Assembly (NCBI RefSeq): GCF_001457595.1
Contig: NZ_LN831039.1
Location: 2,040,001 to 2,072,000, forward strand
From: Mycolicibacterium smegmatis
GTDB lineage: Bacteria; Actinomycetota; Actinomycetes; Mycobacteriales; Mycobacteriaceae
Direction: 5' to 3'
DNA: 32,000 nt
In this document: positions 5,564 through 26,653 of the stretch, piece by piece
Layout: the number at the start of each line of letters is the position of its first letter
How positions within the stretch are numbered: the stretch's first letter is position 1
The notes under the pieces: generated by a model
Databases searched by the model: none
What the model saw: the letters and a program-made list of their open reading frames with translations, nothing else
Told to the model about the DNA's origin: nothing
Position numbers and translations under genes: made by a program

Positions 5564-8281
5564 TCATCGCCGCAGCGCAGCCAACTCGGCGCGCGAACGG
5601 ACACCGAGCTTCGCGTACACCCGCGTCAGGTGGTACTGGACCGTCTTGGGGGATACGTACAGCTCGGCGGCAACCTCGCGGTTGGACAATCCCTGCGCGA
5701 CGAGGGCGGTGACGGCGTCCTCCTGCGGGGTCAACTCGACGCTGTCGCGTGATCCCCGCAGCTGGTGCAAACCGCCGGCCTTGAGTTCGCGGTCACAGCG
5801 TGCGACGTACGTGTGGGCCCCGAGCGACAGGTACAGATCACGGGCCGTGGCGATCACGGCGTCGGCGTCGCGCCGTTTACCGGCGCGTCGCAGCGTCTGT
5901 CCGTAGGCGAAATTGACCCGGGCCCGGTCATAGCGCAGCGGCAGACCGTCGAGCAGCGCCAGCGACTCCTCGAACCGGGCACGCGCTGCGGACAGTTCGC
6001 CCCGTGCGCCGAGCAGTCGCCCGCGCGCGTAGCCCAGCCGGGCCATCGCCGAGCGGTGACCGCGTTCACGCGCCACCTCCTCGTGGGGACGCAGGAATTC
6101 GTCGGCCTCGTCCAGAGCGCCGTCGATCACCAGCGCGTTGGCCAGCACGTCGGGCCACGGCCAGTAACCCGGTTCGGTGAGCACGGTGCCCGGCGCCCTG
6201 GCGGCCAGGGCCGCAAGTGGTTCCAGCACGCGGCGCACCTTCGGGTAGTCCGCCTCGGCCTCGGCGACCTGCGCGCGGGCGAGGATCGTCGGGATCCGCA
6301 TCATCTCGTAGTCCTGGGTGACCCGGTCGGCCGCCTGCACCGCCGCGTGCGCGGTTTCCCAGTCACCGCGCAGCGCACTGATCTGCGCCGCAATCCATTC
6401 CAGCAACGGTGTGGTGATGGTGATCCCGCTGGAGGCGGCGAGATCGCGTCCCGACACGACGGTGGCCAACGCGGCGTCCCAGTCGCCACTGACGAAGTGC
6501 GCGCGTGCGAGCCACGCCATGGCCCACAGCGTGATCCGGCTCGATCCGCCCAGATTGGCCGTGGCGATGGCACTTTCGAGGTTGCTGCGTGCGCCGTCGA
6601 CGTCATCGCGGATCAGTTGCAGCCAGCCGCGCCCCAGGGTCACGCGTTGGGCCTGCGCACCGTGGGTGATCCGTTCTGCCAGTTCGTCGTACGCGGCGGT
6701 CGCCTGCTCCGCGCGGCCCGCGGCGGCCAGGCCGAGCCCGCGCACCGCGGCCGACTCGACCGCGGTGGGGGATTCGCGGTCGGCGAGGCGCAGTGCGGTA
6801 TCGGCCCAGCGGACCAGTTCGGTGCCGCGGCCACGCACCAGTGAGTGCAGCACGTAGCGTTGCGCGATCAGCGCCGCGGTTTCGGGATCGCGTTCGGCGT
6901 TGACGATGTCCCAGGCCCGGCGCAGCCGCACCTCGGCCTCGGTGGCCCGGCCGCGCAGGATCGCCAGGTACGCGAGAACCGCGTTGCGCAAAGGTGTCTC
7001 ACGCAGACTCTCGACAACCGGGATCAGCTGCGCGGCGGCGCCGCAGTCACCGGCGGCCACGAGCGCGTCGACCGAACGGGTGAGCCGTTCGTCGCGCAGC
7101 AGCGGATCCGACGTCAGCCTGCTCGCATCGTGGAACAACGTCGCGGCCAGTGCCCACGCGCCGTCGGCACCGCTGGCCCGCGCGAGGGCGTCGACCTCAC
7201 CGGCCAGCGCCTCGTCGGGCGCCGCCGCGGCCGCGACACGATGGCGAAGCCGGCGCCGCGGATCGGTGATCACCTCGGCCGCGCGCCGGTGCGCCTCGGC
7301 AGTCGCGCGGGCCCCCAGCAGAGTCAGCACAGCAGGCCCGGTCAGCCCGTCGGTCAGCCGGGGCTCGAAATGCACCACATGCGTGACCAGTCCGGCGTCC
7401 ACGGCTTCGTCGAGCGCCGCGAGTGGTTCGCTCGGTCCGCTCAGCCCGGCCAGGTCCGCGGCCTCGGCAAGCGTGACGGTGTCGGTGGCGTCCGTGGCAT
7501 CGCCACCGCCGGTGGCGCCGAGCACCGCGAGCGCCTGCACCAGTGCACGGCCCGCAGGCCCGCAGGAGTCGAGTTGTGTCGCGACACGTTCGACGACGTG
7601 GCGCGGTGCGGGCAGCGACGAGTCGAGCCGTGCCCACGCCGAGGCGGGCACCTCGTCGAACAACGCCAGCACGTCGCGCGGATTGCCGCCGGCGTGACGG
7701 GTCAGGCGGTCGGCCAGGGTCGGGTGGATGGTGATGCCCCGCAGGCGCGCCAACTCCACCACGGCGGCCACCGGGAGACCGGTCAACTCGACCACGTCGT
7801 CGGCCGCGAGCGGGATCGGCAGCGCATCCACCGACTGCGTCGCGAGCACCACCAGCACCGGCAGGTCGCGCTGATGCCGCACGAGTGTCGAAAGTGCCTG
7901 CAGAGACTCGACATCGGCGTGATGCGCGTCGTCGACGAGCAGCAGGCGCACACCCGCCGCGCGCACGTGGTCGACCAGATGCGCAGCGCCGTCGAGCGGG
8001 TCGTCGGGCACGTCGTCCTGCATCAGCTGCGCCAGCACACCGCCGGGCAGGTCGGTCTCCCACGAAGCGCCGAGTGCCCACCACGCACCGTGCCGCTGCG
8101 TCAGGTCGCGCAGCAGGGCGGTCTTGCCGATACCGGGTTCGCCGGTCAGCACCACCAGACGGGCGGTGTGTTCGGCCGCGGCGACGTGCTCACCGAGTTC
8201 GCTGAGTTCACGATCTCGTCCGCACAGCACGCGCCAATTATGCGCCGCCGGCCGGACGCGCCACGGCGCGTTCGAGCTCAT
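5564..8281 (-). CDS. Large ATP-binding LuxR-family (LAL / MalT-like) transcriptional regulator
   Basis: 905 aa. Has an N-terminal P-loop 'GEPGIGKT', Walker-B-like 'LLLVDDAHHAD', a long Ala/Leu-rich helical-repeat (TPR-like) middle, and a C-terminal LuxR HTH 'LSNREVAAELYVSPKTVQYHLTRVYAKLGV'. ATG 8281 overlaps the upstream LysR by 44 nt. An in-frame GTG at 8230 would remove the overlap. Confidence 0.85.
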   Translation of the reverse strand: MSSNAPWRVRPAAHNWRVLCGRDRELSELGEHVAAAEHTARLVVLTGEPGIGKTALLRDLTQRHGAWWALGASWETDLPGGVLAQLMQDDVPDDPLDGAAHLVDHVRAAGVRLLLVDDAHHADVESLQALSTLVRHQRDLPVLVVLATQSVDALPIPLAADDVVELTGLPVAAVVELARLRGITIHPTLADRLTRHAGGNPRDVLALFDEVPASAWARLDSSLPAPRHVVERVATQLDSCGPAGRALVQALAVLGATGGGDATDATDTVTLAEAADLAGLSGPSEPLAALDEAVDAGLVTHVVHFEPRLTDGLTGPAVLTLLGARATAEAHRRAAEVITDPRRRLRHRVAAAAAPDEALAGEVDALARASGADGAWALAATLFHDASRLTSDPLLRDERLTRSVDALVAAGDCGAAAQLIPVVESLRETPLRNAVLAYLAILRGRATEAEVRLRRAWDIVNAERDPETAALIAQRYVLHSLVRGRGTELVRWADTALRLADRESPTAVESAAVRGLGLAAAGRAEQATAAYDELAERITHGAQAQRVTLGRGWLQLIRDDVDGARSNLESAIATANLGGSSRITLWAMAWLARAHFVSGDWDAALATVVSGRDLAASSGITITTPLLEWIAAQISALRGDWETAHAAVQAADRVTQDYEMMRIPTILARAQVAEAEADYPKVRRVLEPLAALAARAPGTVLTEPGYWPWPDVLANALVIDGALDEADEFLRPHEEVARERGHRSAMARLGYARGRLLGARGELSAARARFEESLALLDGLPLRYDRARVNFAYGQTLRRAGKRRDADAVIATARDLYLSLGAHTYVARCDRELKAGGLHQLRGSRDSVELTPQEDAVTALVAQGLSNREVAAELYVSPKTVQYHLTRVYAKLGVRSRAELAALRR

Positions 8282-9266: not shown

Positions 9267-11666
9267 TCACCGTTGGGCGGCCGTCACCTCCTGCGGCATC
9301 TCCAGCACCCCGCGCTCGATGAGCTCGTCGATCTCGGCGTCGGACAGGCCGAGCAGTTCCGCCGCGATTTCGCGGGTCTGCTCACCCAGCAGCGGTGCCT
9401 GACCCAGCGGCGGATCGGCGACCCGGTCGGAGTGGATCTGGACGTTCTCCATCATGAACGGCTCGGCGGCGTGCGGGTGCAGCTCCTCGCGGAAAGCACG
9501 ACGCTCCGCGTAATAGCCGAAGTTCGGCACCTCGCCTGCGTGCAGCACCGCACCGGCAGGCACCCCGGCTTTTTGCAGAAGCTCCATCGCCGCGGTCGCG
9601 GTGCGCGCGGACGTCCACGCCCGCACCGCCTCGTCGATGCGTGCGCGGTCGGCGTCCCGGCCGGCGGGCGTGTTCAGGGCGTCGTCGGCCGCGAGGTCGG
9701 CCCGGCCGATCACGCCGCACAGCGCCTGCCAGTCGGTGGTGTCGCGCACCGTGACCGCCACCCACTTGTCCTCGCCCTCGGCGGGGAACAGGCCCCACGG
9801 CGCGTCGTGCACCGGTTCGTCCGAGCGCGCATGCCCCTGCCGCTGCAGCACCTCCGCGGCGATCTCGCCCGCCAGGTGGCTCAGCATCACCTCGGACTGC
9901 GCGACGCTGACCGCGCCGCCGGTTCCGGTGCGCTCGCGGCGCAACAGCAGCGTCAGCGCGGTGAGCGCGCCGATGCGCGCCGCGACGTGGTCGGGGTAGA
10001 CCGTCACCGTGTCACAGAACTCGCCAGGCGCGTCGGGGTACACCCACAGGTCGGTGAACCCGGCCGCGGCCCGCACGAGCGGCCCGTAGCCCAATCGCCT
10101 GGCCCACGGGCCAGTGGGCCCGAACGCCGAGCTGTCGACCACCACGATGCCGGGATTCACCTTCTTCAGGCTCCCGAAATCCATGCCGAGCGCCTGTGCC
10201 ACACCAGGTTTGAAATTCGTGAGCACCACGTCGGCATCTTCGGCGAGGCGGTGCGCGAGTGCGCGGCCCTCGTCAGAACGCAGGTCGATACCGATCGAGC
10301 GTTTGTTGCGATGCCCGGACGCGTACGTCTGCGACATCATGTTGAGCCTGCCGCGCAGCCCGTCGGGAAACGCCGAATTCTCGATCTTGATGACGTCGGC
10401 ACCGAGATCGGCGAACAAACGCCCGGTGTCCGCGCCGACCACGATCACCCCGAGGTCGAGCACCCGGAGCCCTTCCAGTGGAAGGCCGACGTCTCGGCGT
10501 GCCCGGCCGCCGAGAACCGGTGCGCCCTCGGGAGGGGCGGACGTGCCCCGCGGTGCGGTGAGCGCGCTGGCGCGGTGGCCGTCCACCTCGGAGACACCCA
10601 CCGGCACCGGCGCGGTGAATCCGTTGGCGAGTTCGACCTCGCGGAAAAACCCACGCTCCTTGACCTGTTCGGTGTCCAGGGCCTCGGTCAGCGTGAGCAC
10701 GGCCGCGGTCGGCACACCGTGGCGTTGTCCCTCGGCCTCCAACTCCGCGCGCGTCTTGTCCGCACAGAACCGCTCGATCGCCGGGAGCAGCGTCGGCGAC
10801 ATGAAGCGCTCCATCAGGCTGTTGAACTTGGGGTCGGCGAATTCCTCGGGCTCACCCATCCACGTGAACATGCCCTGCCACTGGCGTTTCGCCAGCACGC
10901 AGATCCGCACATAGCCGTCCTTGCAGCGGACGATTGGGTAGCGCTGCCGTTCGGCGAGCCAGTTCCTGCGCTGTTCGGCCAGCGGCACACCGGCCGACGC
11001 CGTGCCCGGTGTGCCGAACGGTGGGTCCAGCGTCTGCATCGCCCCGTCGAGCACCGAGAAGTCGATGAGATCGCCTGTGCCGGTGCGTAACCGGTCGAGG
11101 TACACGCTCACGGTCATCACCGCGGCCTGCGCGGCGGCCACCTGGTACGGCAGCTGCGGCGCAGGCGGCACCAGCGGTTCGCGCCCCGGGATACCCGAAC
11201 GCGACAGCTCGCTGGTCAGCGCGTGCAGCACCGGTGTGGTGGCCTGCCACGTGCGGTACGCGGTGTCGCGGCCGAAGTCGCTGACCGACAGGATCACCAG
11301 CGAGGGGTGATCGGCGTGGATCTCTCTGGCCGACAACGCCTTCTCGGCATCCGAACCGGGCCGGGTGTTCTCGATGAGGATGTCGGCGTCGGCCAGCAAC
11401 TCACGCCAGCGCCGCGCGCCATCGGCTGTCGAGGTGTCGAGGTCGACGGTGCTCAGGCCGAACCGGTTGATGGCGGTGCCCACCGGAACCGCGCCGATGC
11501 GCGGCCCCACTGTCGCCCCGGCCTCGGTCACCCCGGCCAGGTTGACCGGCGTGACCTGCGCACCGAGATCGGCGAGCAGACGCCCGACCGCGGTGATCGG
11601 GCCGGACGACAGATCGAGGACCTTGACCCCGGAAAGGGGCGGATCGTAGGTGTCGGTGCTCGTCAT
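9267..11666 (-). CDS. Tandem-fused family III (CaiB/BaiF) CoA-transferase-like protein with two complete domains
   Basis: 799 aa. The N-half (about aa 1-385) has 'LSGVKVLDLSSGPITAVGRLLADLGAQV'. The C-half (about aa 395-799) has 'LEGLRVLDLGVIVVGADTGRLFADLGADVIKIEN...HRNKRSIGIDL...DVVLTNFKPG'. These are the family III N-terminal signatures, present twice. Confidence 0.85.
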   Translation of the reverse strand: MTSTDTYDPPLSGVKVLDLSSGPITAVGRLLADLGAQVTPVNLAGVTEAGATVGPRIGAVPVGTAINRFGLSTVDLDTSTADGARRWRELLADADILIENTRPGSDAEKALSAREIHADHPSLVILSVSDFGRDTAYRTWQATTPVLHALTSELSRSGIPGREPLVPPAPQLPYQVAAAQAAVMTVSVYLDRLRTGTGDLIDFSVLDGAMQTLDPPFGTPGTASAGVPLAEQRRNWLAERQRYPIVRCKDGYVRICVLAKRQWQGMFTWMGEPEEFADPKFNSLMERFMSPTLLPAIERFCADKTRAELEAEGQRHGVPTAAVLTLTEALDTEQVKERGFFREVELANGFTAPVPVGVSEVDGHRASALTAPRGTSAPPEGAPVLGGRARRDVGLPLEGLRVLDLGVIVVGADTGRLFADLGADVIKIENSAFPDGLRGRLNMMSQTYASGHRNKRSIGIDLRSDEGRALAHRLAEDADVVLTNFKPGVAQALGMDFGSLKKVNPGIVVVDSSAFGPTGPWARRLGYGPLVRAAAGFTDLWVYPDAPGEFCDTVTVYPDHVAARIGALTALTLLLRRERTGTGGAVSVAQSEVMLSHLAGEIAAEVLQRQGHARSDEPVHDAPWGLFPAEGEDKWVAVTVRDTTDWQALCGVIGRADLAADDALNTPAGRDADRARIDEAVRAWTSARTATAAMELLQKAGVPAGAVLHAGEVPNFGYYAERRAFREELHPHAAEPFMMENVQIHSDRVADPPLGQAPLLGEQTREIAAELLGLSDAEIDELIERGVLEMPQEVTAAQR

Positions 11667-11671
11667 GTCGG

Positions 11672-12865
11672 TCAGCTCCGGCGTGCCTCGCGGAACGGGA
11701 TGTCCCGGTCCACCTCGGGTTCCTTCGGCAGGCCCAGGACGCGCTCGCCGATGATGTTGCGCTGCACCTGATCCGTGCCGCCGCCGATCGAGGTGAAGAA
11801 CGCGTTGAGCGTGAGGAAGTTGATGTCGTCGGCCTCCGGGTTCTCCGGACCGGCCAAAAGCGCCTCGGCACCGATGATCTCGGTCTTGAGCCGCGCCTCC
11901 GAATGCAGGATGTGCGACATCGCGAGCTTGCCCAGCGACATGATGGACGTCGATGTGCCCTGTCCGGCAGAGGCTTTCGCGCGCGCGTTGTTGAGGCGGT
12001 TGAGTTCGCGCAGCGCGAGCACGTTCGCGAGTTCCTTCCGGATCGCCGGATCGTCCAGACGCCCGTGTTCGCGTGCCAGTTCGACAAGGCTGTCGGCCTT
12101 GGACTTGTTGCGCGATCCGCGTCCGCTGTCACCCATGATCGAGCGCTCGTAGGCCAGCGCGGTCTGCAGCACACGCCACCCGTTGCCCTCGCCGCCAACG
12201 AGGTACTCGTCGGACACCCGCGCATCGGTGATGAACACCTCGTTGAAGTGTGACTCACCGGTGATCTGCACCAGCGGGCGCACCTCGATACCGAGCTGCT
12301 TCATCGGGATGACGAAAAAGCTCAGGCCCTTGTGCTTGGGGACGTCCCAGTCGGTACGGGCGATCAGCAGCGCGTACTCGCTGGTCGCGGCACCCGAGGT
12401 CCACACCTTCTGCCCGTTGACCATCCACTCGTCGCCATCACGCACGGCCGTGGTGCGCACGGCCGCGAGGTCGGAGCCCGCGCCCGGCTCGCTGTAGAGC
12501 AGGCACGTGCGCGAACGCTCGGTGAGGAACTCGTACAGCAGGTGCTGTTTGATGGTGTCGTTGCCGAACATCAGGATCGTGTTGGCCGGGATGCTGTACT
12601 TGTCCAGGCGTGAGCCCGGGGCGCGGACGGCCCGGAATTCCTTCTCGATGACCGAGGCGAGCTTGTGCGGATACTCGCGGCCCCACCACTGCTTCGGGTA
12701 GGACGGCACGGCATAGCCGGCGTCGACGACCTTCTCCAGCCACGCGATGCGCTCCGGGGTGCTGACCCAGGGATCGGTCTGCTTGGGCAGGCCTTTCCAG
12801 TTCTGGGCGAGCCACTCCCGCACCTCGGCAGCCAGTTCCTCGGGGGTGGGCAGTTCGTTGGTCAT
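11672..12865 (-). CDS. Acyl-CoA dehydrogenase (probable catalytic, FAD-binding subunit)
   Basis: I place the start at ATG 12865 (MTNELPTPEEL...); the track ORF to 13267 is an extension into the upstream gene. ACAD motifs 'LLYSEPGAGSDLA', 'KVWTSGA' and 'GGGTDQVQRNIIGERVLGLP'. Confidence 0.9.
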   Translation of the reverse strand: MTNELPTPEELAAEVREWLAQNWKGLPKQTDPWVSTPERIAWLEKVVDAGYAVPSYPKQWWGREYPHKLASVIEKEFRAVRAPGSRLDKYSIPANTILMFGNDTIKQHLLYEFLTERSRTCLLYSEPGAGSDLAAVRTTAVRDGDEWMVNGQKVWTSGAATSEYALLIARTDWDVPKHKGLSFFVIPMKQLGIEVRPLVQITGESHFNEVFITDARVSDEYLVGGEGNGWRVLQTALAYERSIMGDSGRGSRNKSKADSLVELAREHGRLDDPAIRKELANVLALRELNRLNNARAKASAGQGTSTSIMSLGKLAMSHILHSEARLKTEIIGAEALLAGPENPEADDINFLTLNAFFTSIGGGTDQVQRNIIGERVLGLPKEPEVDRDIPFREARRS

Positions 12866-12866
12866 G

Positions 12867-13982
12867 TCAGGCGCCTTTCGCGGTGAGGTAACGCTCGCGG
12901 TGCTGAGCCGAGCTGCCGAACAGTTGCAGGCCGGTGCGGGCCCGGCGCACGAACAGGTGCGCGGGATGCTCCCAGGTGAAGCCGATGCCGCCGTGCATCT
13001 GGACGGCCTGCATGGCCGTCGTGTTGTACGCCTCGGCGCAGAAGAAGCCGGCCAGCGCGATCGCTCCCGCGGCGTCGTCGCTGCCCGCGGCCTTCTCGGC
13101 GGCCGCGTGCTGCGCGGCCGACGTCGACGACTCCACCTGCACCAGCAGATCGGCCGCCATGTGCTTGAGCGCCTGGAAGCTGCCGATGGCGCGGCCGAAC
13201 TGGATGCGGGTCTTGAGGTAGTCGATGGTGATGTCGAAGATGCGCCGTGTTCCGCCGACCTGCTCACCGGCCAGCGCGATCACCGCGAGGTCCAGTGCGT
13301 GGCTCACGGCGTCCCAGCCCGCGGTGCCGATGCGGCGCGCCGGGGTGTCGGTGAAGGTGAACGTCGACAACCGCACGGACGGGTCGAAAACGGTTGCCGC
13401 AGCGCGGGTCAGGCCTGTTGCGTCGGGTGTGACCTCGAAGATCCCGACGCCGCCCACATCATCTTTGCCGGTGCGGGCGACCACCAGGAGGACGTCGGCG
13501 ATCTGGCCGCTCAGCACGTAGTGAGCGTTACCGTTCAGCGTGTGGCCGTCGGCGCGCTCGGTCGCCTTCACGGCGACGCCCTCTTGTGCCCAGGTGCCGC
13601 GTGCCCCGGTCACGGCGACCGTCGCGATCGAGGTGCCCTCGGCGAGGCCCGGCAGCAGACGCTGCTTGTCCTCGGCGGTGCCTGCCGCTTCGATGAGCGC
13701 GGTGGCCAACACTGCGCTGCCGATGAACGGTGCCGGTAGCAGTGCCGCACCGGTCTCCTCGGCGACGGCCTCGAGCTCAAGAGCGCCGAGCCCGACGCCG
13801 CCGTACTCGGGATCGATCAGCAGCCCGGTCACACCCTGTGCGGCGAGCTTGCGCCACAACTGGGGGTCGTATCCCTCGTCGCTGCTGATCGTCTGCCGTA
13901 CGTCCTGCTCGGTGCACTCGTTCTGCAGCAGCTCCCGGACCGCGGCGGCCAACTCCGCCCGCTCGGCCACGCTGATCGTCAT
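12867..13982 (-). CDS. Acyl-CoA dehydrogenase family protein (possible non-catalytic partner subunit)
   Basis: ACAD C-terminal pattern 'IQFGRAIGSFQALKHMAADL...HGGIGFTWEHPAHLFVRRA'. I prefer ATG 13982 (MTISVAERAEL), preceded by GAAAGG, over 14012. Its stop lies 1 nt from the next ACAD start (TGAcATG). Confidence 0.85.
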   Translation of the reverse strand: MTISVAERAELAAAVRELLQNECTEQDVRQTISSDEGYDPQLWRKLAAQGVTGLLIDPEYGGVGLGALELEAVAEETGAALLPAPFIGSAVLATALIEAAGTAEDKQRLLPGLAEGTSIATVAVTGARGTWAQEGVAVKATERADGHTLNGNAHYVLSGQIADVLLVVARTGKDDVGGVGIFEVTPDATGLTRAAATVFDPSVRLSTFTFTDTPARRIGTAGWDAVSHALDLAVIALAGEQVGGTRRIFDITIDYLKTRIQFGRAIGSFQALKHMAADLLVQVESSTSAAQHAAAEKAAGSDDAAGAIALAGFFCAEAYNTTAMQAVQMHGGIGFTWEHPAHLFVRRARTGLQLFGSSAQHRERYLTAKGA

Positions 13983-14146
13983 GTGAACCGCCTTTCTGCG
14001 CGTCGCAACCATGCAACGCGTGTTCGGCGGACGTGTAAATCACGTATTAGGACACTGACAGATTTCCCAAAGGGAAACGCCAGGCGTGCGGGCAGATGTC
14101 CCCAGGGGTAACAGCCCAGGTCAGCCGGGGTCTATCACCCAGCCTG

Positions 14147-16909
14147 TCAACCCAGGTCGCCACCGGCCACCGGCAGGACGCTGCCGGTGATGTAGGACGC
14201 CTCGTCGGAGGCCAGAAAGCAGATCGCGGCGGCCTGCTCGTCGAGGGTTCCGTACCGGTGCATGAGCGACGAGGCGAGCGTCTGGTCGATGTGCGCCTGG
14301 AACCAGGCCCGCTCGGTGTCGTCGGCCGGCGCCGGGGTGCCGCGACTGATCCGCCGCGGCGGCGCGTCGGTACCGCCCGGCGCGGTCGCCACGACCCGGA
14401 TCCCGGCGTCGGCGTACTCCATCGCCAGTGACGCGGTGATCGCGTTGATACCGCCTTTGGCCGCCGAGTACGGGATCCGGTGGATGCCGCGGGTGGCGGC
14501 CGAGGACACGTTGACGATCACGCCGTGTCCCTGCTCGACCATCGCCGGTAGGGCCGCGCGGCACGCGTAGAGCGTGGTCATCAGTGAGCGGGTGATCTCG
14601 GCCTGGATCTCGTCGGCGGTGAACTGCGTGAACGGTTTGAAGTTGATCGCCCCGCCGACGTTGTTGATGAGCACGTCGATGTGCCCGAACTTGCGAATCG
14701 CCTGCCGGACAACTGTTTCTGCGCCGTCGGGGTGCTCCAGGTCGGCGGTGACGGCCAGGGTCGCCGGGCCGGTCTGCGACAGTTCGTCGGCGAGGTCATG
14801 GACCAGTTCGGCACGGTCGACCATGACCACACGGCCGTCCTCGGCGTTGATGCGGCGCGCGGTGTGCTCGCCGATGCCCTGGGCGGCGCCGGTCACCACC
14901 ACCACCTTGCCGCGGAACCGGCCCGGTGAGATGAACCTGGGTGTGCGTGCGGCCCGGACCTTTTCGCGCTCGGCCTGCTCCTGGTCGGCGAGTGCGCGGC
15001 GCATGGTCTGCTTGGCGCATTCGGCGTGCGCCGTGATCAGGGTCTTGGCCGCGGCGCGGTCGTGGGCCTCGAACGCCTCGACGATGCGGACGTGGTCCTG
15101 CGCGCACAGCGGGTGACACCAAGTGGCGTGGCGAAGCACCTCGCTCATGCGTCCTTTGACGTCGAGTGCCTGATACGCCTGCAGCAGGTGCTCATTGCCG
15201 GTCAGGGTGAACAGGTAGTCGTGGAATGCCGCGTTGGTCTCGGTGTACCGGGCCGCGTCGACGAAGCGGTCACCGTCCACGTACGGCAGTGTCGACTCGG
15301 CGAGCAGGCGATAACCGGCCAGCTGTGCGGTGCTCAACCGTCCGATCGTGAGTTCCAGCGCACCGAGTTCGAGCGCCTGGCGCGCCTCGAAAAGGGCATC
15401 GGACTCGTGCAGTTCGGGATGCTCCTCGCCGATCTGGTATCCGTCCGGCGCCACGGGTTGCGGTGGCTGCACATGCACCGGCTCGGGCACATCGTCGGGT
15501 ACCTCGACCACAGAGGCGGGGGCTGCGACTGCCCGGGCGGCGAAAACCTCCTGCCCCGCAAGCGATCGCGCCCCGCTCGCCCGCAGCGCACCGCCGTCGT
15601 CGTCGAGCTGGGTCGCGGTCCCCGGCGCGGCGGGTGCGATCAACTGACCGGCGATCCGGCGCGCGCTGTCGGCGTGGTCATGCCCCGGCCGGCTCGCGGT
15701 CTGTTCGGCCGGGGCCATGTCGATGCTCGACGGTATCTGTTGGCCGCAGATCGCGTCCGCGTCGGGAGCGGTGAGCAGGTTCTCGACCGGCCCCGCGGCC
15801 GATTCCTCGGCGGGGGATCGGTCGGCGGGCGCATCGGGCGCACCGGCACGGGTGAGCCCGAACTTCTCGAAGTAGAAACCGGTCGGCGTGACACCGGAAT
15901 TGGTCAGGTGGGTGCGGACTGCCTCGACCATGGGCGGTGGTCCGCACAGGTAGACGGCCACGTCACCGCCGTAAAGATGCTCGGAGCTGATCAGTTCGGG
16001 TATGCGTACCTTGTTGGCCGAGGTGCTCGACGGGTCGGATACGCAGTGACTCCACGTGAACGCGGGCAACTGGGAGGCGAATTCGTCGATGCGGTCCAGT
16101 TCGACCAGATCGGCGTCGGAGCTCACGCCGTAGATCAGATGGGCCGTGCGGGTGCTGCCGTCAGAACGCAGCTTGCCCAGCATCGACAGCACCGGCGCCA
16201 GGCCGGTGCCGCCGGCCAGCAGCAGGATGGGGCGCTCGGCCTCGCGCAGGAAGAACGATCCGTGCGGCCCGGTGAAGCTGACCGCGTCGCCCACCACCGC
16301 GCGTCGCGACAGGTACTCCGACATGGCCCCGCCGGGAACGAGTTTCACCAGGAAGGTCAGCAACGCCTCGTCCGGGGGGTTGGAAAACGAGTACGACCGC
16401 GTGATGTCGGTGCCCGGCACCGTGATGTTGACGTACTGGCCGGGCAGGAACGCCAGGTCGGCACGGTCGGGGATCTCGACGGTGAACCGGACCGTCGTGG
16501 CGGACAGGCGGGTCAGTTCGACGATGGTGCCTGTGTATCTGGTGGCCTGGGTCTTGGCGATGTCGGACGTGCCTGCGATCTGCAGCACCAGGTCCGAGCG
16601 TGGTTTCATGCTGCACGGCAGGACATATCCGCGTTCGGCCTCGTCGGGTGCGAGCGCGTCGTCGATGTAGGTGCCTGCGTCGTAGCGGCCCGACTCGCAC
16701 AGCGCCTTGCACGTGCCGCACGCGCCGTCGCGGCAGTCCAGCGGGATGTTGATGCGCTGCCGGTACGACGCGTCGGCCACGGTCTGGTCGGCGCGGCAGG
16801 TGATGAACCTGGTGACCCCGTCCTCGAAGGACAAGGCCACCGAGAAGGTTTCGTCGCCCTCCGGGGTGTTCGGGTGCTGCGCGGAATTTCTGTCGATCAT
16901 CACGGTCAT
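14147..16909 (-). CDS. Fusion protein: BenC-type benzoate dioxygenase reductase (2Fe-2S + FNR-like), low-complexity linker, FCD domain, BenD-type cis-diol dehydrogenase (SDR)
   Basis: One uninterrupted 920-codon ORF. aa 1-350 (nt 15860-16909): 'CRDGACGTCKALC...LPCS', 'RSYSFS', 'LLAGGTGLAP', 'YLCGPPPMV', ending 'GFYFEKF'. aa 351-500 (nt 15410-15859): Ala/Pro/Asp-rich linker. aa 501-640 (nt 14990-15409): FCD-like 'ALFEARQALELGALEL...AFHDYLFTLTGNEHLL...DHVRIVEAF...ITAHAE'. aa 660-920 (nt 14150-14932): SDR 'GKVVVVTGAAQGIG', 'NNVGG', 'YSAAK'. Confidence 0.8.
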   Translation of the reverse strand: MTVMIDRNSAQHPNTPEGDETFSVALSFEDGVTRFITCRADQTVADASYRQRINIPLDCRDGACGTCKALCESGRYDAGTYIDDALAPDEAERGYVLPCSMKPRSDLVLQIAGTSDIAKTQATRYTGTIVELTRLSATTVRFTVEIPDRADLAFLPGQYVNITVPGTDITRSYSFSNPPDEALLTFLVKLVPGGAMSEYLSRRAVVGDAVSFTGPHGSFFLREAERPILLLAGGTGLAPVLSMLGKLRSDGSTRTAHLIYGVSSDADLVELDRIDEFASQLPAFTWSHCVSDPSSTSANKVRIPELISSEHLYGGDVAVYLCGPPPMVEAVRTHLTNSGVTPTGFYFEKFGLTRAGAPDAPADRSPAEESAAGPVENLLTAPDADAICGQQIPSSIDMAPAEQTASRPGHDHADSARRIAGQLIAPAAPGTATQLDDDGGALRASGARSLAGQEVFAARAVAAPASVVEVPDDVPEPVHVQPPQPVAPDGYQIGEEHPELHESDALFEARQALELGALELTIGRLSTAQLAGYRLLAESTLPYVDGDRFVDAARYTETNAAFHDYLFTLTGNEHLLQAYQALDVKGRMSEVLRHATWCHPLCAQDHVRIVEAFEAHDRAAAKTLITAHAECAKQTMRRALADQEQAEREKVRAARTPRFISPGRFRGKVVVVTGAAQGIGEHTARRINAEDGRVVMVDRAELVHDLADELSQTGPATLAVTADLEHPDGAETVVRQAIRKFGHIDVLINNVGGAINFKPFTQFTADEIQAEITRSLMTTLYACRAALPAMVEQGHGVIVNVSSAATRGIHRIPYSAAKGGINAITASLAMEYADAGIRVVATAPGGTDAPPRRISRGTPAPADDTERAWFQAHIDQTLASSLMHRYGTLDEQAAAICFLASDEASYITGSVLPVAGGDLG

Positions 16910-16918
16910 GGCGGGTCC

Positions 16919-17434
16919 CTAGAAGTGGTAGATGTCCACCACGTGGTGGATGTAGTCGTTCTTCAGCACGACCGTCTTGCGCCGGATCAGCGGCTGTTCA
17001 CCGGAGAAGTCGATGGTGTAGAAGGAGGTCCCGTAGTACGGGTCGACCGTCTTGTACCGGAAATACATGGTGTGCCAGTTGAACCGGACATCCACCAGGT
17101 CGCCGCGCCGCTCGATGACCTCGACGTTGCTGATGTTGTGGCTCGTGCGTGGCTCGGGCAGCGATGTCGCCGAGGACCGTTCGGTGCGGATCCGGAACAC
17201 GCGGTCTTCCAGTCCGCCTTTGTTGGCGTAGTAGATCAGCGAGATGTCGCGCTGCGGATCCTCGACCAGTCGGTCGTCGTCGGCCCACGAGGGCATCCAG
17301 TAGACGACGTCGTCGGCGTAACACTCCAACCATTTCTCGAACTCGCGGTCGTCGAGATACCGGGCCTCCCGGTAGAGGAACTGCTCGATGACGTTCTGGG
17401 TGATGAGCTTGGCTGGCTTTTCGGTGGTGGTCAT
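16919..17434 (-). CDS. benB: Benzoate 1,2-dioxygenase small (beta) subunit
   Basis: 171 aa. 'VIEQFLYREARYLDDREFEKWLECYADDVVYWMP' is the typical ring-hydroxylating dioxygenase beta subunit (NTF2-like) pattern. It is 1 nt from the benA stop. Confidence 0.9.
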   Translation of the reverse strand: MTTTEKPAKLITQNVIEQFLYREARYLDDREFEKWLECYADDVVYWMPSWADDDRLVEDPQRDISLIYYANKGGLEDRVFRIRTERSSATSLPEPRTSHNISNVEVIERRGDLVDVRFNWHTMYFRYKTVDPYYGTSFYTIDFSGEQPLIRRKTVVLKNDYIHHVVDIYHF

Positions 17435-17435
17435 G

Positions 17436-18800
17436 TCAGTGCTCCGTGGGGTTCGAGGTGACGGCGCGGCGCAGGGTCCTCAGCCAGTAGCCGTGCTGCA
17501 CCGGGTAGAGGCCTTCGTCCTCGTTGCGCAGGCCCGACGAGACGATGCCGTGCATCCCCAGCGACTCCGCGACCGGATCGGGTCCGGAAAGCCAGTGCTG
17601 CGCACCGCGGCTCATGTCGTTCCACGGTGCGGCCTGCGCGCGGAACGTGAGCTGGCAGGACCGGAACTCCTCGAGGTCGTCGGGGGTGGCCATGCCCGAG
17701 GCGTTGAAGAAGTCCTCGTATTGGCGGATCCGGTGGGCGCGGGCCGCGGCGCTCTCGCCCTTGGGGGCGATGCAGTAGATCGTGACCTCGGTCTTGTCGG
17801 GCGCGATCGGCCGGAAATGCCGGATCTGCGTCGAGAACTGGTCCATCACGTAGACGTTCGGGTACAGGCACAGGTTGCGTGAGCCCTTGACCATGAATTC
17901 GCCCTTGGCTTCGCCGAATCGGGCCTTGAGCTCGTCGAGCCGGTCCCACAGGGGACGGTCCTGCGGGTTGGCGGCCCAGGTCCACAGGCACAGATGCCCG
18001 TGGGGGAACGACCAGTAACCGCCGCCGGACTTGCCCCAACTGCCGGCGTCGAGCGCCTTGGTGTCGTTCTTGGACTCGCCGCACGTGCGACGGCTGGTGG
18101 TGGCGGCGTAGTTCCAGTGGGTCGCGGTCACGTGGTAACCGTCGGCACCGTTCTCGGCCTGCACCTTCCAGTTGCCGTCGTAGGTGTAGGTGGACGCACC
18201 CCGCAGGACCTCGAGACCGTCCGGTGACTGGTCGACCAGCATGTCGATCACCGTCGTCGTGTCACCGAGATGCTCGGTGAGAGGCAGCACGTCGGGATTG
18301 AGGCTGCCGAACAGGAACCCGCGGTACCCCTCGAACCGCGCGACCTTGGTCATGTTGTGAGATCCGTTGGAGTTGAACGTGTCCGGGTACCCGGCGCCGT
18401 CGGGGTCCTTGACCTTGAGCAGGGTGCCGTCGTTGCGGAACGTCCAGCCGTGGAACGGGCAGGTGAGCGTGGTGCGGTTGTCGGTCTTGCGCCGACAGAT
18501 CATCGCGCCGCGATGTGCACACGCGTTGATCAGGCAGTGCAGGTCGCCGTCGCGGTCTCGCGTGATCACCACGGGCTGACGGCCGATGTAGGTGGTGAAG
18601 TAGTCGCCGGGGTTGGGCACCTGGCTCTCGTGGGCGAGATAGACCCAGTTGCCCTCGAAGATGTGCTTCATCTCCAACTCGAAGATCTCGTCGTCGGTGA
18701 AGATGCGGCGGTTGGCGCGGTAGACGCCGGCCGCGGGGTCCTCGATCACCGCGTCGGCCAGCACGTTCTCCAAGTGGTCGGGGGACAGGTGAGTGGTCAT
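17436..18800 (-). CDS. benA: Benzoate 1,2-dioxygenase large (alpha) subunit, Rieske oxygenase
   Basis: Rieske motif 'CAHRG...CPFHGW' and catalytic-domain 'DGYHVTATH'. I prefer ATG 18800 (MTTHLSPD...) because GGAGG sits 6 nt upstream; the track start at 18839 is an extension. Confidence 0.9.
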
Positions 18801-18888
18801 GTTTGCCTCCGGTTCGGCTCTTGACAGGCACTCTTCCAACGGGTGGCGGCCGTCACACTAGGGCATTTCCCAGTCCCGACCTGGGCAT

Positions 18889-18915: not shown

Positions 18916-19009
18916 ACCGAAAACAAGTCCTTGTTGCCTATGGATCGCGGGTCTACCGTCGGTTGTGTCGGCCATCACAGGCCGTGCCCGTTCGTCAGAG
19001 AGGTCCGCC

Positions 19010-19936
19010 GTGGAGCTCAGGCACCTTCGCTATTTCGCCGCCGTGGCGGATACCTGCCATTTCGGCCAGGCCGCCGAGCAGCTGCATGTCGCCCAGCCCG
19101 CGCTGTCCTACGCGATCCGTCAGCTCGAGACCGAACTCGACGTCACGTTGTTCTACCGCACCACGCGTCAGGTGTCCCTGACCCCGGCGGGGGAGTTCCT
19201 GCGGGCCGAGGCCGCGCGCATCCTCGCCGGCGTCGACGACGCCGAACGCGGCGTGCGACGGATCGCGCGCGGCCGCGGCGGACTGTTGCGGCTGGGCCTG
19301 ACCGGAACCGCGGCGTTCTCCCACCTGCCGCGGATCGCGCGCATCGTCAAACGCGAATTACCCGACGTGGCACTGGAAATCCATGCCGACATGCTCACCC
19401 CGGTCCAGTGCGACAGCCTGCGGTCCGGCGCGCTCGACCTCGGGGTGTTGCGGCCTCCCGCCGTCGGCGACGGCGTCGAACTCACCGTCATCGACGCCGA
19501 ATCGCTCGTGCTGGCGGTCTCGGCAGACCACCGCCTGGCAGCCGAACCTGTCGTGTCGATGGCCGACCTGCGCGCCGAACCGTTCGTGGGGTACGCCAGC
19601 CGTGACTCCGCGGTCAACGATGCGGTGCTGCGTAGTTGCCGCAGCGCGGGTTTCGTCCCCGACCGGGCGCACACCGCGCCCGGAACCGCGGTGCTGCTCG
19701 CGCTGGTCGCGGCCGACCTGGGCGTTGCGGTGGTTCCGGAATCGGTGCGTGCGCTGCCGCTCGACGGCGTGGTGTTCCGCGACCTGCTCGACGGCGGCAC
19801 CGTCGAATTGGCACTGGCCTGGCGACGTGCGGCCGACCGCGATTCTCACGCGAATCCCCTTGTCGGCTCAGTCGTCGACATCCTGGCCCCGGCGCTGAGC
19901 CGGGAGTCCGTCCCGAGTCTTGAGGAGAGACTGTGA
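19010..19936 (+). CDS. LysR-type transcriptional regulator (CatR/BenM-like by context)
   Basis: wHTH 'VELRHLRYFAAVADTCHFGQAAEQLHVAQPALSYAIRQLETELD'. I prefer GTG 19010, preceded by GAGAGG and matching the usual LTTR N-terminus; the track start at 18965 is possible. The stop overlaps the catB GTG start (GTGA). Confidence 0.85.
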   Translation: MELRHLRYFAAVADTCHFGQAAEQLHVAQPALSYAIRQLETELDVTLFYRTTRQVSLTPAGEFLRAEAARILAGVDDAERGVRRIARGRGGLLRLGLTGTAAFSHLPRIARIVKRELPDVALEIHADMLTPVQCDSLRSGALDLGVLRPPAVGDGVELTVIDAESLVLAVSADHRLAAEPVVSMADLRAEPFVGYASRDSAVNDAVLRSCRSAGFVPDRAHTAPGTAVLLALVAADLGVAVVPESVRALPLDGVVFRDLLDGGTVELALAWRRAADRDSHANPLVGSVVDILAPALSRESVPSLEERL

Positions 19937-21036
19937 AAATTGTTGCGATAGGCGCAATCCCGTTTTCGATCCCCTATACGAAGCCGTTGCGCTTCGCCTC
20001 GGGTGAGGTGCACGCCGCCGAACACGTGTTGGTTCGCGTGCACACCGACGACGGGATCGTGGGCGTGGCCGAGGCTCCGCCGCGGCCCTTCACCTACGGT
20101 GAGACCCAGCCCGGCATCGTTGCGGTGATCGAAAAGTACTTCGCGCCGGCCCTGATCGGTCTGACGCTCACCGAGCGCGAGGTCGCCCACACGCGGATGG
20201 CCCGCACCGTCGGCAATCCCACCGCCAAGGCGGCCATCGACATGGCCATGTGGGACGCGCTCGGACAGTCGCTGAGGCTGTCGGTCAGCGAGATGCTAGG
20301 CGGTTACACCGATCGGATGCGCGTGAGCCACATGCTCGGATTCGACGATCCGGTGAAAATGGTCGCCGAGGCCGAGCGCATCCGGGAGACCTACGGGATC
20401 AACACCTTCAAGGTGAAGGTGGGCCGGCGGCCGGTACAACTCGACACCGCCGTGGTGCGTGCGCTGCGTGAGCGGTTCGGCGACGCGATCGAACTCTACG
20501 TCGACGGCAACCGCGGATGGTCGGCGGCCGAATCGCTGCGTGCGATGCGCGAGATGGCCGATCTGGACCTGCTTTTCGCCGAGGAGCTGTGCCCGGCCGA
20601 CGATGTGCTCAGCCGGCGCAGGCTGGTCGGTCAACTCGACATGCCGTTCATCGCCGACGAATCCGTCCCGACACCGGCAGATGTGACGCGTGAGGTGCTC
20701 GGCGGCTCGGCCACGGCGATCAGTATCAAGACCGCGCGCACCGGGTTCACCGGTTCCACCCGCGTGCACCACCTCGCCGAGGGTCTCGGCCTGGACATGG
20801 TGATGGGCAACCAGATCGACGGGCAGATCGGCACGGCCTGCACGGTTTCCTTCGGCACGGCCTTCGAGCGCACCTCGCGCCATGCCGGTGAGCTGTCCAA
20901 CTTCCTCGACATGAGCGACGACCTGCTGACCGTCCCGCTGCAGATCAGCGACGGGCAGTTGCACCGCAGACCCGGACCGGGACTCGGCATCGAGATCGAC
21001 CCCGACAAGCTCGCGCACTACCGCACCGACAACTGA
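19933..21036 (+). CDS. catB: Muconate cycloisomerase (enolase superfamily)
   Basis: 367 aa with a GTG start preceded by GAGGAGAGA. The MLE-type pattern is 'FKVKVG', 'LYVDGNRGW', 'FAEELCP', 'IADES'. It lies next to catA and catC. Confidence 0.9.
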   Translation: MKIVAIGAIPFSIPYTKPLRFASGEVHAAEHVLVRVHTDDGIVGVAEAPPRPFTYGETQPGIVAVIEKYFAPALIGLTLTEREVAHTRMARTVGNPTAKAAIDMAMWDALGQSLRLSVSEMLGGYTDRMRVSHMLGFDDPVKMVAEAERIRETYGINTFKVKVGRRPVQLDTAVVRALRERFGDAIELYVDGNRGWSAAESLRAMREMADLDLLFAEELCPADDVLSRRRLVGQLDMPFIADESVPTPADVTREVLGGSATAISIKTARTGFTGSTRVHHLAEGLGLDMVMGNQIDGQIGTACTVSFGTAFERTSRHAGELSNFLDMSDDLLTVPLQISDGQLHRRPGPGLGIEIDPDKLAHYRTDN

Positions 21037-21069
21037 ACAACAGCCCCTACCCGTCAAGGAGATCCACAC

Positions 21070-21963
21070 ATGACCACATTCGAAGCACCGCACATCGAGA
21101 AGATCGAGTTGGCCGAAAAGGCCGGGAAGGCCACGGCCGCGGCGTCGGGGGCGTCGGCCACCGAGCGGTTCCACCTCGACAAGTCACCGTTCGACGCGGT
21201 ACGTGACGTTCCCGCCGAACGTGTCGACCTGCTGGCCCGCGAGGTTCTCGACGCGGTGCACGCCACCATCCGCAGGCACAAGGTGACCTACGAGGAGTAC
21301 AACGCGCTCAAGGCGTGGCTGATCAACGTCGGCGAGGACGGCGAATGGCCGTTGTTCCTCGACGTCTGGGTCGAGCACGTCGTGGAGGAGGTCGCCACGG
21401 CGCACCGGCACGGCAACAAGGGCAGCATCGAGGGGCCGTACTACGTCCCCGACTCGCCCGAACTGGGCGCCGACGCGACCATGCCCGTGCGGCCCGGCGA
21501 GGCCGGCACCCCGCTGGTGTGGGAGGGCACGATCACCTCGACCGACGGGCGACCGCTGGCGGGCAAGGTCGAACTGTGGCACGCCGATTCCGAGGGCTTC
21601 TATTCGCAGTTCGCCCCGGGCATCCCGGAATGGAATCTGCGCGGCACCATCTCCACCGGTGACGACGGTGCCTTCCGCATCACGACGATGCGGCCCGCGC
21701 CGTACCAGATCCCCACCGACGGCTCGTGCGGAAAGCTCATCGCCGCGGCCGGCTGGCACGCCTGGCGTCCCGCACATTTGCACGTCAAGGTGTCGGCGCC
21801 CGGACACGAACTGCTCACCGCGCAGCTGTACTTCCCTGGCGATCCGCACAACGGCGACGACATCGCCACGGCCGTCAAGCCTGAGCTGATGCTCGATCCG
21901 CAGCCTCAGCCCGACGGCAGCGAGATGGTGCGCTACGACTTCGTCCTGGACCCGGAAAGCTGA
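21070..21963 (+). CDS. catA: Catechol 1,2-dioxygenase (intradiol)
   Basis: 297 aa. 'GSIEGPYYVPDSPELG', 'LWHADSEGFYSQF' and 'RPAHLHVKVSAPGHELLTAQLYFPGD' are intradiol dioxygenase signatures. The RBS AAGGAGA is upstream. Confidence 0.92.
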   Translation: MTTFEAPHIEKIELAEKAGKATAAASGASATERFHLDKSPFDAVRDVPAERVDLLAREVLDAVHATIRRHKVTYEEYNALKAWLINVGEDGEWPLFLDVWVEHVVEEVATAHRHGNKGSIEGPYYVPDSPELGADATMPVRPGEAGTPLVWEGTITSTDGRPLAGKVELWHADSEGFYSQFAPGIPEWNLRGTISTGDDGAFRITTMRPAPYQIPTDGSCGKLIAAAGWHAWRPAHLHVKVSAPGHELLTAQLYFPGDPHNGDDIATAVKPELMLDPQPQPDGSEMVRYDFVLDPES

Positions 21964-25981: not shown

Positions 25982-26102
25982 CCGTCACCGGTGCCATTGA
26001 TTGATGGCATTCGGTGTTCTGCACGCCATTATGCGGCCGCGTCAAAATGAAATGTGATCACGATTACGTGAATTCACTGTTGAAATTGTCCAGAAATGAG
26101 TT

Positions 26103-26131
26103 AGGGCCTCGGCGAAATTCGCCGAGGCCCT
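26103..26131. terminator. Strong hairpin between convergent pdtaS and whiB1; likely bidirectional intrinsic terminator
   Basis: AGGGCCTCGGCG-aaatt-CGCCGAGGCCCT forms a perfect 12-bp GC-rich stem with a 5-nt loop. Neither side has a strong U-tract, as I recall is common for mycobacterial terminators. Confidence 0.6.
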
Positions 26132-26151
26132 GACTTCGGGTATCTGAGAGC

Positions 26152-26406
26152 TCAGACTCCGGTGCGCGCCTTGGTGCGCGCGTTGCGACGCTTGAGTGCA
26201 CGGCGCTCGTCCTCGCTCATGCCGCCCCACACGCCGGCGTCCTGGCCCGACTCCAAAGCCCAGCTCAGGCACTCGGTGGTCACCGGGCACCGGTTGCACA
26301 CCAGCTTCGCGTCAGCGATCTGGGCAAGGGCCGGCCCACTGTTTCCCACCGGGAAGAACAGCTCCGGATCCTCGTCGCGACAGACCGCCTTGTGGCGCCA
26401 ATCCAT
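26152..26406 (-). CDS. whiB1: WhiB-family [4Fe-4S] transcription factor WhiB1
   Basis: 84 aa: MDWRHKAVCRDEDPELFFPVGNSGPALAQIADAKLVCNRCPVTTECLSWALESGQDAGVWGGMSEDERRALKRR. It has four Cys (C-x(n)-C-x2-C-x5-C), 'GVWGG' and a basic tail. The RBS is AGGAG. Confidence 0.95.
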   Translation of the reverse strand: MDWRHKAVCRDEDPELFFPVGNSGPALAQIADAKLVCNRCPVTTECLSWALESGQDAGVWGGMSEDERRALKRRNARTKARTGV

Positions 26407-26427
26407 GTGATCTAACTCCTAATCGGG

Positions 26428-26453
26428 CGCGCGGCAAAGCGCGCGAATTTTTT
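26428..26453 (+). other. GC stem plus T6 tract in the whiB1 leader; terminator-like on the strand antisense to whiB1
   Basis: CGCGCG (26428-26433) pairs with CGCGCG (26440-26445) across a 6-nt loop. On the + strand the stem is followed by aaTTTTTT (26448-26453). Confidence 0.3.
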
Positions 26454-26653
26454 CTCGGCTGTTAACGCGTGCACACAAATGTTTCTGCACTGTTGCATCT
26501 GATGTTTTCACACGCTCGACAGATGTCAATAGCAGTGAGTTAACACGTGGGCAATGTCACTACCTGGGTCGGGTAACCGACCACTTGTTCCGTTGTACTA
26601 CAGTGATACCTACCTACGCCCTCGATTAAGCGTGTGATGTACGTCTGCGCAGG

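Follow-up and report, generated by a model that had tools for sequence, protein, structure and literature searches.

Conservation, probable origin and possible role of the FCD domain in the BenC-BenD fusion protein of Mycolicibacterium smegmatis

In our study, a stretch of 32,000 nucleotides of Mycolicibacterium smegmatis (NCBI RefSeq assembly GCF_001457595.1, contig NZ_LN831039.1, positions 2,040,001 to 2,072,000), hereafter the window, was found to contain an open reading frame (ORF) of 920 amino acids (aa) that joins the reductase BenC and the dehydrogenase BenD of benzoate degradation. The ORF lies at window positions 14147..16909 on the reverse strand (-), and the order of its Pfam and NCBIfam domains is BenC, linker, FCD domain and BenD. 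The FCD domain is very probably older than the fusion with BenD, and the fusion itself very probably took place at an ATGA overlap between the stop codon of benC and the start codon of benD. The explanation that we favour as a whole, a three-module protein of staged origin in which the FCD domain tunes the reductase, is evenly poised between holding and failing.

BenC and BenD modules

The ORF starts with an ATG codon and contains zero in-frame stop codons in the ORF list, and its translation shared 100% identity with M. smegmatis proteins at NCBI. A preliminary description of the window had claimed that a complete BenC and a complete BenD follow each other without a stop codon between them. 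This was borne out by the single ORF and by the NCBIfam equivalog models, NF040810 for BenC (cut-off 430 bits) and NF040811 for BenD (cut-off 380 bits), as both modules scored over the cut-off. An hmmscan search returned Fer2, FAD_binding_6, NAD_binding_1, FCD and adh_short exactly in the order that had been anticipated. All residue and linker counts given below were made in 70 aligned orthologues.

The BenC module (aa 22-350; 15860..16846, -) matched positions 1-330 of the 333 positions of NF040810 with 471.3 bits and ends with the residues GFYFEKF. It contained the Pfam domains Fer2 (aa 29-103), FAD_binding_6 (aa 128-219) and NAD_binding_1 (aa 230-332). Residues 5-336 of the Acinetobacter BenC structure (1KRH, 338 aa) were aligned to aa 23-351 with an E-value of 8e-109, and in this alignment the stand-alone proteobacterial BenC ends about 2 residues past FEKF, so that the end of the module had been placed correctly. 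The 2Fe-2S cysteines C59, C64, C67 and C99, the RSYSF motif (R171-F175) and the GGTGxAP motif (G233-P239) were invariant in the orthologues. From its family membership, the module is predicted to transfer electrons from NADH to BenAB.

The BenD module (aa 664-920 and the stop codon; 14147..14920, -) is a short-chain dehydrogenase/reductase (SDR) with the TGAAQGIG motif and Y814-x3-K818. It matched all the positions of NF040811 (1-256 of 256) with 411.3 bits, and Pfam adh_short was found at aa 668-850 with an E-value of 3.9e-47. The residues T673-G680, S802, Y814 and K818 of the SDR were invariant, and all the BenC and BenD residues quoted in the preliminary description (C59/C64/C67/C99, RSYSFS, LLAGGTGLAP, Y814 and K818) were present. 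In comparison with the canonical benABCD genes of Acinetobacter, the Fer2-FAD-NAD reductase aligns from end to end and the BenD equivalog is of full length, whereas the Acinetobacter BenC ends 2 residues past FEKF, possesses no linker and no FCD domain, and has a separate BenD.

Conservation of the fusion

The fusion is real and conserved beyond reasonable doubt. Among the homologues, the best 120 of 1166 (counted as clusters) all contained the same six Pfam families, ranged from 834 to 929 aa and showed 66-83% identity. At least 120 orthologue clusters were found, from Mycolicibacterium, Mycobacterium spp., Gordonia, Aldersonia and metagenomes. The frame was open in 70 of the 70 aligned orthologues despite linkers of 67-150 aa, and we take the fusion as real because orthologues with differing linker lengths keep one frame, which is the decisive evidence. 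The Gordonia orthologues were 66-70% identical along the full length; the Gordonia locus L019 contained the same cluster, with catA-catC-catB-LysR divergent from benA-benB-fusion, and lacked a separate benD. None of the close relatives (the 120 best of 1166 homologues) was seen to have returned to split genes. The fusion is kept across genera and is not specific to the strain.

An artefact of sequencing or assembly, or a pseudogene with a lost stop codon or a frameshift in this strain, was weighed as the source of the single ORF. Genomes of high GC content yield long spurious ORFs, and one such typical artefact, an 811-aa ORF, lies antisense to the fusion at window 15026-17461 (+). When the sequence was shuffled, the linker alone was stop-free in 15% of shuffles, whereas the stretch of aa 351-663 was stop-free in only 0.3%. 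The remaining two sense frames were closed, and the GC content at third codon positions was 0.82 in the linker in the coding frame. The 920-aa protein, exact or at least 90% identical, was present in many independent M. smegmatis assemblies, complete genomes included (NCBI examples are ABK72679.1, AFP38338.1 and WP_003893288.1; one member was found on 218 contigs), with the frame intact. The architecture is kept across genera and all modules exceed the curated cut-offs. The many assemblies and the at least 120 orthologue clusters rule out an artefact or pseudogene, the probability of which we regard as negligible.

Separate products of BenC size and BenD size, formed through internal initiation (for example at M636) or through proteolysis of the linker, would also be compatible with one long frame. 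A disordered linker is a plausible protease target, and in-frame ATG or GTG codons occur at positions 588, 591, 636, 669 and 670. However, no start codon is present at the native N-terminus of BenD, the starts at 669 and 670 fall in the first Rossmann strand, upstream of TGAAQGIG, and the translation of BenC must run on without a stop codon. We therefore hold separate products to be very improbable. The codon of M636 is itself an unlikely start: M636 is an invariant residue of an FCD helix, no Shine-Dalgarno-like element accompanies it, and it is equally conserved in Rhodococcus, whose BenD starts at an ATG of its own.

The fusion itself is already known and annotated. NCBI names the protein BenC, and in some records BenD. 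The genome paper of Gordonia alkanivorans YC-RL2 (AMB Express 2019) described benC and benD fused with an FCD domain (PMC6362181). The domain order and the position in the operon are the same there (benA, benB and the fused gene, with LysR and cat genes divergent), but the genus is another one and the paper gives only the architecture from RAST and CDD, with no function, origin or distribution (PMC6362181). The M. smegmatis gene is of the same kind, as one ORF contains BenC, FCD and BenD within an operon containing benA and benB. The view of the fusion as unusual, held in the preliminary description, was thus not supported by the NCBI annotation and the YC-RL2 genome (PMC6362181). In the literature searched, no functional study of BenC-FCD or of the M. 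smegmatis benzoate genes was found.

FCD domain

About 310 extra residues had been counted between BenC and BenD. They are present (313 aa), but they are not a spacer made by the fusion; they consist of a linker and an FCD extension of actinobacterial BenC that is older than the fusion. The FCD domain (aa 488-645; 14975..15448, -) is a ligand-binding domain with no winged helix-turn-helix (wHTH), as found with Pfam, AlphaFold2 (AF2), Foldseek and hhalign. Pfam FCD (PF07729) was matched at aa 506-629 with an E-value of 8.9e-15 and 55.7 bits against a gathering threshold of 24.3. The AF2 model of the FCD part alone was compact and all-helical, with a predicted local distance difference test (pLDDT) score of 94.7. 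Foldseek matched it with a probability of 1.0 to the inducer-binding domains of the carboxylate-sensing GntR/FadR regulators DhdR, PmiR, Atu1419/VanR, NanR, PdhR, DgoR and Zn-TM0439, and hhalign matched the FCD part to 218-aa GntR regulators with a probability of 99.7%. A single-sequence search of the PDB with the FCD region reached a best E-value of only 0.19, whereas the profile and fold searches gave matches; other searches with the region returned mainly gene fragments and the 218-aa GntR regulators.

No wHTH (PF00392) was found in the whole protein at an E-value of 0.01 or below, nor in the linker at 10 or below, and the extension of the hhalign alignment had no confidence. The protein thus has an FCD domain without being a GntR regulator. 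The FCD domain was as conserved as BenD and more so than BenC, with a majority frequency of 0.88 (39% invariant columns), against 0.88 in BenD and 0.84 in BenC.

A putative metal and effector site is formed by N559, H563, H606 and H628, which were invariant or nearly so in the reductase-linked FCD domains and align, at the level of sequence, with the canonical D/N-x3-H, H and H of solved FCD proteins. In Atu1419, Asn137, His141, His192 and His214 chelate a Zn2+ ion that contacts the effector, and TM0439, PS5454 and LldR share this site (PMC7797058). The melting temperature of the triple-His mutant of Atu1419 was lowered by about 20 degrees C (PMC7797058). The FCD regulators of the VanR group (Atu1419, TM0439, PS5454, LldR, DhdR, PmiR and NanR) resemble the domain in their all-alpha fold (template modelling score 0.6-0.78 on the target) and in the Asn/Asp-x3-His and two-His site with the same spacing. 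They differ in that they are DNA-binding repressors with an N-terminal wHTH and share only 17-23% identity with it, whereas the domain of the fusion sits between two enzymes and a wHTH is undetectable. Because it is conserved like BenD, its fold matches inducer-binding domains and its Asn and three His residues align with their site, the domain appears to be a maintained ligand-binding module minus its DNA-binding partner, and not a spacer.

A loop of W597-C598-H599-P600-x-C602 (window 15104-15121, -) was found just before the helix of H606. It was invariant and occurred in the BenD-fused clade only; Rhodococcus contains YWVESHIV at this position. The loop might provide an additional metal or redox site.

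Linker and its repeats

The linker (aa 351-487; 15449..15859, -) is rich in Ala and Pro, variable and predicted to be disordered, with AF2 pLDDT below 50 along aa 344-481. It evolves fast, with a majority frequency of 0.43 and the range of lengths given above. The linker gave no Pfam match even at an E-value of 10 or below.

Within the linker, three copies of a short motif were found (consensus DARAxAGQ). The first copy is DADAICGQQI (aa 383-392; 15734..15763, -), the second is ARRIAGQLIA (aa 416-425; 15635..15664, -) and the third is ARSLAGQEVF (aa 447-456; 15542..15571, -), in which R448, G452 and Q453 were invariant in the orthologue alignment. AF2 rendered each copy, the second among them, as a short helix and a beta-bridge. 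The pattern R-x-x-[AGCVS]-G-Q occurred in 159 copies in the 70 linkers, against 0.6 in shuffles; 59 of the 70 orthologues contained 2-3 copies, and the motif was nearly absent outside the linker. An unfused BenC-FCD protein (P0134) with a linker of 200 aa contained an analogous triple repeat, ARPVGFQPR, SRPVGFEPR and ARPVGYIPP. The repeats look like conserved short linear motifs.

A decayed wHTH was considered as the source of the linker and found to be unsupported, as hhalign gave no confidence outside the FCD domain and Pfam gave no match. The residues PDGYQIGEEH match in position the wing strand PDGTFVARPI of a protein with the order Flavin_Reduct-GntR-FCD.

Origin of the FCD domain and of the fusion with BenD

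The order of events was traced through the relatives of the FCD domain. When aa 480-662 were used as the query of an exhaustive phmmer search, 358 relatives were obtained. Apart from the 900-aa fusions, the domain was found at the C-terminus of BenC-type reductases without BenD (525-697 aa), on HpaC-type flavin reductases (319-390 aa), some with a GntR wHTH in between and some without, on an Old Yellow Enzyme (OYE)-type reductase (556 aa) and on an acyl-adenylate-forming (AMP-binding) enzyme (905 aa); the carriers other than BenC are labelled P0151, P0175, P0163, P0164, P0156 and P0251. At one locus (L020, 6001-6747), the gene of a flavin reductase with an FCD domain is divergent from an adjoining gene of an HpaB-type aromatic hydroxylase.

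Five Rhodococcus genomes (L001-L005) contained benA-benB-benC-benD in which BenC carries the FCD domain (538-540 aa) and benC and benD overlap through the stop/start ATGA in five of five. The benC gene of Rhodococcus sp. TG-1 was annotated as 'FCD domain-containing protein' (PMC11858498). The Rhodococcus BenC is alike in its linker and wHTH-less FCD domain, in the YEIGEEH cap, the N/H/H/H site and the QTMRRA helix, and in the benD gene directly after it. It is unlike the fusion in its stop codon after the FCD domain, the ATGA overlap and the separate BenD; furthermore, its linker is about 45 aa long without RxxAGQ repeats, WCHPLC is missing and the FCD domain is about 51% identical. The same overlap of benC with benD was found in 11 of 11 alphaproteobacterial loci with a plain 338-aa BenC. 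In total, the overlap was present in 16 of the 16 readable unfused loci (among L001-L017), from Rhodococcus to alphaproteobacteria (for example L002, 6614-6617), and represents a translational coupling of deep conservation. The statement in the preliminary description that known ben operons have benC and benD as separate genes holds in Rhodococcus and in the proteobacteria examined.

The junction of FCD and BenD (aa 646-663, DQEQAEREKVRAARTPRF...; 14921..14974, -) lies at the position of the Rhodococcus ATGA stop/start overlap. It was short and variable, with a majority frequency of 0.49, and its length was about that of the Rhodococcus FCD tail and BenD N-terminus together (compared with L002). 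In a neighbour-joining tree of FCD domains, the fused clade was tight and monophyletic and was nested in the unfused BenC-FCD proteins, which in turn sat among the FCD domains linked to flavin reductases; Gordonia and Mycolicibacterium were intermixed within the fused clade.

The most economical history, strongly inferred from these loci, has three stages. In the first, benC and benD would have been separate genes coupled by the ATGA overlap, as in proteobacteria. In the second, benC would have acquired the C-terminal linker and FCD domain while the overlap with benD was kept, as in Rhodococcus. In the third, a small frameshifting indel at the overlap would have merged the two frames, as in Mycolicibacterium, Gordonia and Aldersonia. 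Because Rhodococcus and other reductases carry the FCD domain without a fused BenD, the primary partnership is that of reductase and FCD domain, and not that of BenC and BenD.

The fusion with BenD could be a near-neutral frozen accident, in which a frameshift at the ATGA overlap was tolerated and then inherited or transferred within the Mycobacteriales. This is compatible with the explanation that we favour, and it would fit the overlap being universal in the unfused loci examined, the short and poorly conserved junction, the tight clade with intermixed Gordonia and Mycolicibacterium, and the fact that Rhodococcus manages without a fusion. However, the frame is kept in all of the at least 120 clusters with no reversion seen among close relatives, and the clade-specific WCHPLC loop and the expanded RxxAGQ linker suggest adaptation after the fusion. 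On balance, we regard a mere accident as rather unlikely.

A local redox loop, in which the NADH made by BenD is handed straight to the tethered BenC, was raised in the preliminary description. BenABC uses one NADH and BenD regenerates one, an established balance of the pathway; both modules are complete and stand 1:1 in one chain, and the fusion is kept across genera. Against this, BenC is tethered by a fast-evolving disordered linker of 67-150 aa, the added residues are part of the reductase and are present without BenD in Rhodococcus and others, and the two genes were translationally coupled already before the fusion. NADH moreover diffuses freely as a pool metabolite, and the full-length AF2 model, which had a predicted template modelling (pTM) score of 0.41, gives no ground for inferring a channel. 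Nothing in our analysis favours the redox loop, which we consider improbable.

Possible role of the FCD domain

The gene fusion alone matters little, as it is conserved, annotated, in print and explained by a frameshift at a coupled overlap; the remaining interest lies in the FCD module on oxygenase reductases. The function of the domain is probably tied to the reductase, because its close relatives are attached to NAD(P)H-dependent reductases of three unrelated folds whatever is downstream. That the FCD domain is an effector-sensing regulator of the reductase is suggested by analogy and is possible, although somewhat short of probable. It would be a metal-dependent sensor of a small carboxylate, for which the obvious candidates are benzoate, its cis-diol and cis,cis-muconate. 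The point at which the extension leaves BenC, immediately past F350, is the C-terminal end of the NAD-binding domain, and the FCD domain may tune the NADH-driven electron flow through BenC, limiting uncoupled NADH oxidation when substrate is absent. The fusion with BenD would then mainly fix a 1:1 stoichiometry and co-localisation, an easy and possibly near-neutral step.

To our knowledge, no Rieske-oxygenase reductase is under post-translational control by its substrate. The analogy is drawn from AbHpaC (C1), the reductase of the p-hydroxyphenylacetate hydroxylase of A. baumannii (PDB 5ZC2), in which a MarR-type domain at the C-terminus keeps the flavin reductase autoinhibited until the binding of 4-hydroxyphenylacetate, with which flavin reduction rises at least 30-fold (PMC10816480). 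Here, too, a reductase is followed by a domain derived from a transcription factor, and an FCD-bearing HpaC-type reductase beside an HpaB-type hydroxylase exists (L020). The regulatory effect is proven in AbHpaC, whereas for BenC-FCD it is proposed by analogy. The domain there is MarR and not FCD, the reductase has the Flavin_Reduct fold and is not of the FNR type with 2Fe-2S, and no third enzyme is fused.

A more detailed proposal is that the FCD domain acts as an allosteric switch, which would bind benzoate, its cis-diol or muconate at the Asn and three His residues and gate the electron flow from NADH through BenC, perhaps together with BenD in the fused clade, with the RxxAGQ repeats serving for docking. 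One GntR-type ligand-binding lineage would then have been captured by FNR-type, HpaC-type and OYE reductases to hold back wasteful NAD(P)H oxidation at the post-translational level. We put this forward as tentative and doubtful in its details. If true, the gating of BenC by the FCD domain would account for the way in which actinobacteria keep uncoupled NADH oxidation and the formation of H2O2 in check, the single precedent of AbHpaC would become a general principle across three reductase folds, and a natural ligand-switchable reductase would be available for biocatalysis. The FCD question is directly testable, as both M. smegmatis and Rhodococcus are tractable.

Several points weigh against the favoured explanation. 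FCD domains act as oligomerisation modules too. The analogy with AbHpaC crosses both the regulator fold (MarR and FCD) and the reductase fold (HpaC and FNR type). The full-length AF2 model, with its low pTM, gave no reliable contacts between domains. The neighbour-joining tree is rough and carries no support values, and its root on free GntR regulators was set by assumption. No ligand, metal or kinetic data on any BenC-FCD protein were found in the literature searched. The His site could also be purely structural, as the loss of thermal stability in the triple-His mutant of Atu1419 illustrates (PMC7797058).

A rival reading is that the FCD domain is a structural oligomerisation scaffold with a structural metal, which holds several copies of BenC and BenD together as one particle without any sensing. 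In GntR regulators, the domain serves for both effector binding and oligomerisation, and Atu1419 gains about 20 degrees C of stability from its metal (PMC7797058). The last helix of the FCD domain is long and leads almost directly into BenD in the AF2 model. SDRs are generally oligomeric. However, the FCD domain also ends monomer-type reductases with nothing downstream, and all the positions of the effector site are conserved in three reductase contexts. A pure scaffold would need no site of Asn and three His residues, although a structural metal is possible. A scaffold without sensing is therefore unlikely in our judgement, and we retain regulation of the reductase by the FCD domain as the preferred role.

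Gene neighbourhood

The fusion is the third gene of benA-benB-(benC::FCD::benD), the operon for the conversion of benzoate into catechol, which is divergent from LysR-catB-catA (18965..21963, +). Its ATG codon lies 9 nucleotides past the stop codon of benB and is preceded by a GGGA element. The equivalogs of benA and benB are present directly upstream on the same strand, as in a BenC-type neighbourhood. The benB gene (16919..17434, -), encoding the small subunit of benzoate 1,2-dioxygenase, lies immediately upstream of the fusion and matched TIGR03232 with 270 bits (cut-off 226). The benA gene (17436..18839, -), encoding the large subunit, matched TIGR03229 with 800 bits (cut-off 781); the match begins at aa 30 and the exact start is uncertain. 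The LysR regulator (18965-19936, +), divergent from the ben genes, was followed by catB (19933-21036, +) and catA (21070-21963, +), all with NCBIfam matches. The layout of LysR and cat genes is alike in the Gordonia locus L019.

Directly downstream of the fusion, within window 9267-14012 (-), two acyl-CoA dehydrogenase-like genes with weak PimC/PimD-like matches were found. The same region encodes a 799-aa protein with two halves resembling CaiB/formyl-CoA transferases. A LuxR-type regulator of 905 aa (AAA_16 and GerE) is encoded at window 5564-8281 (-). A regulator of the same kind adjoins benD downstream in Rhodococcus (L002, 7505-10201) and the fusion downstream in Gordonia (L019, 9463-12123). 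In the window, the distance between this regulator and the ben genes is about 6 kb, taken up by acyl-CoA dehydrogenase, CoA-transferase and LysR genes. A thiolase and a CoA-transferase were found at window 1515-4314 (+) and likely belong to the lower beta-ketoadipate pathway (pcaF/pcaIJ-like). With catBA added, these genes make the window an aromatic-catabolism island. On the other side, a PdtaS-type histidine kinase (GAF_PdtaS, HisKA_2 and HATPase_c) is encoded at window 24482-25981 (+), and a local dip of the GC content to 0.59 was observed at window 26001-27000, beside a DAGK_cat gene (26654-27616, -).

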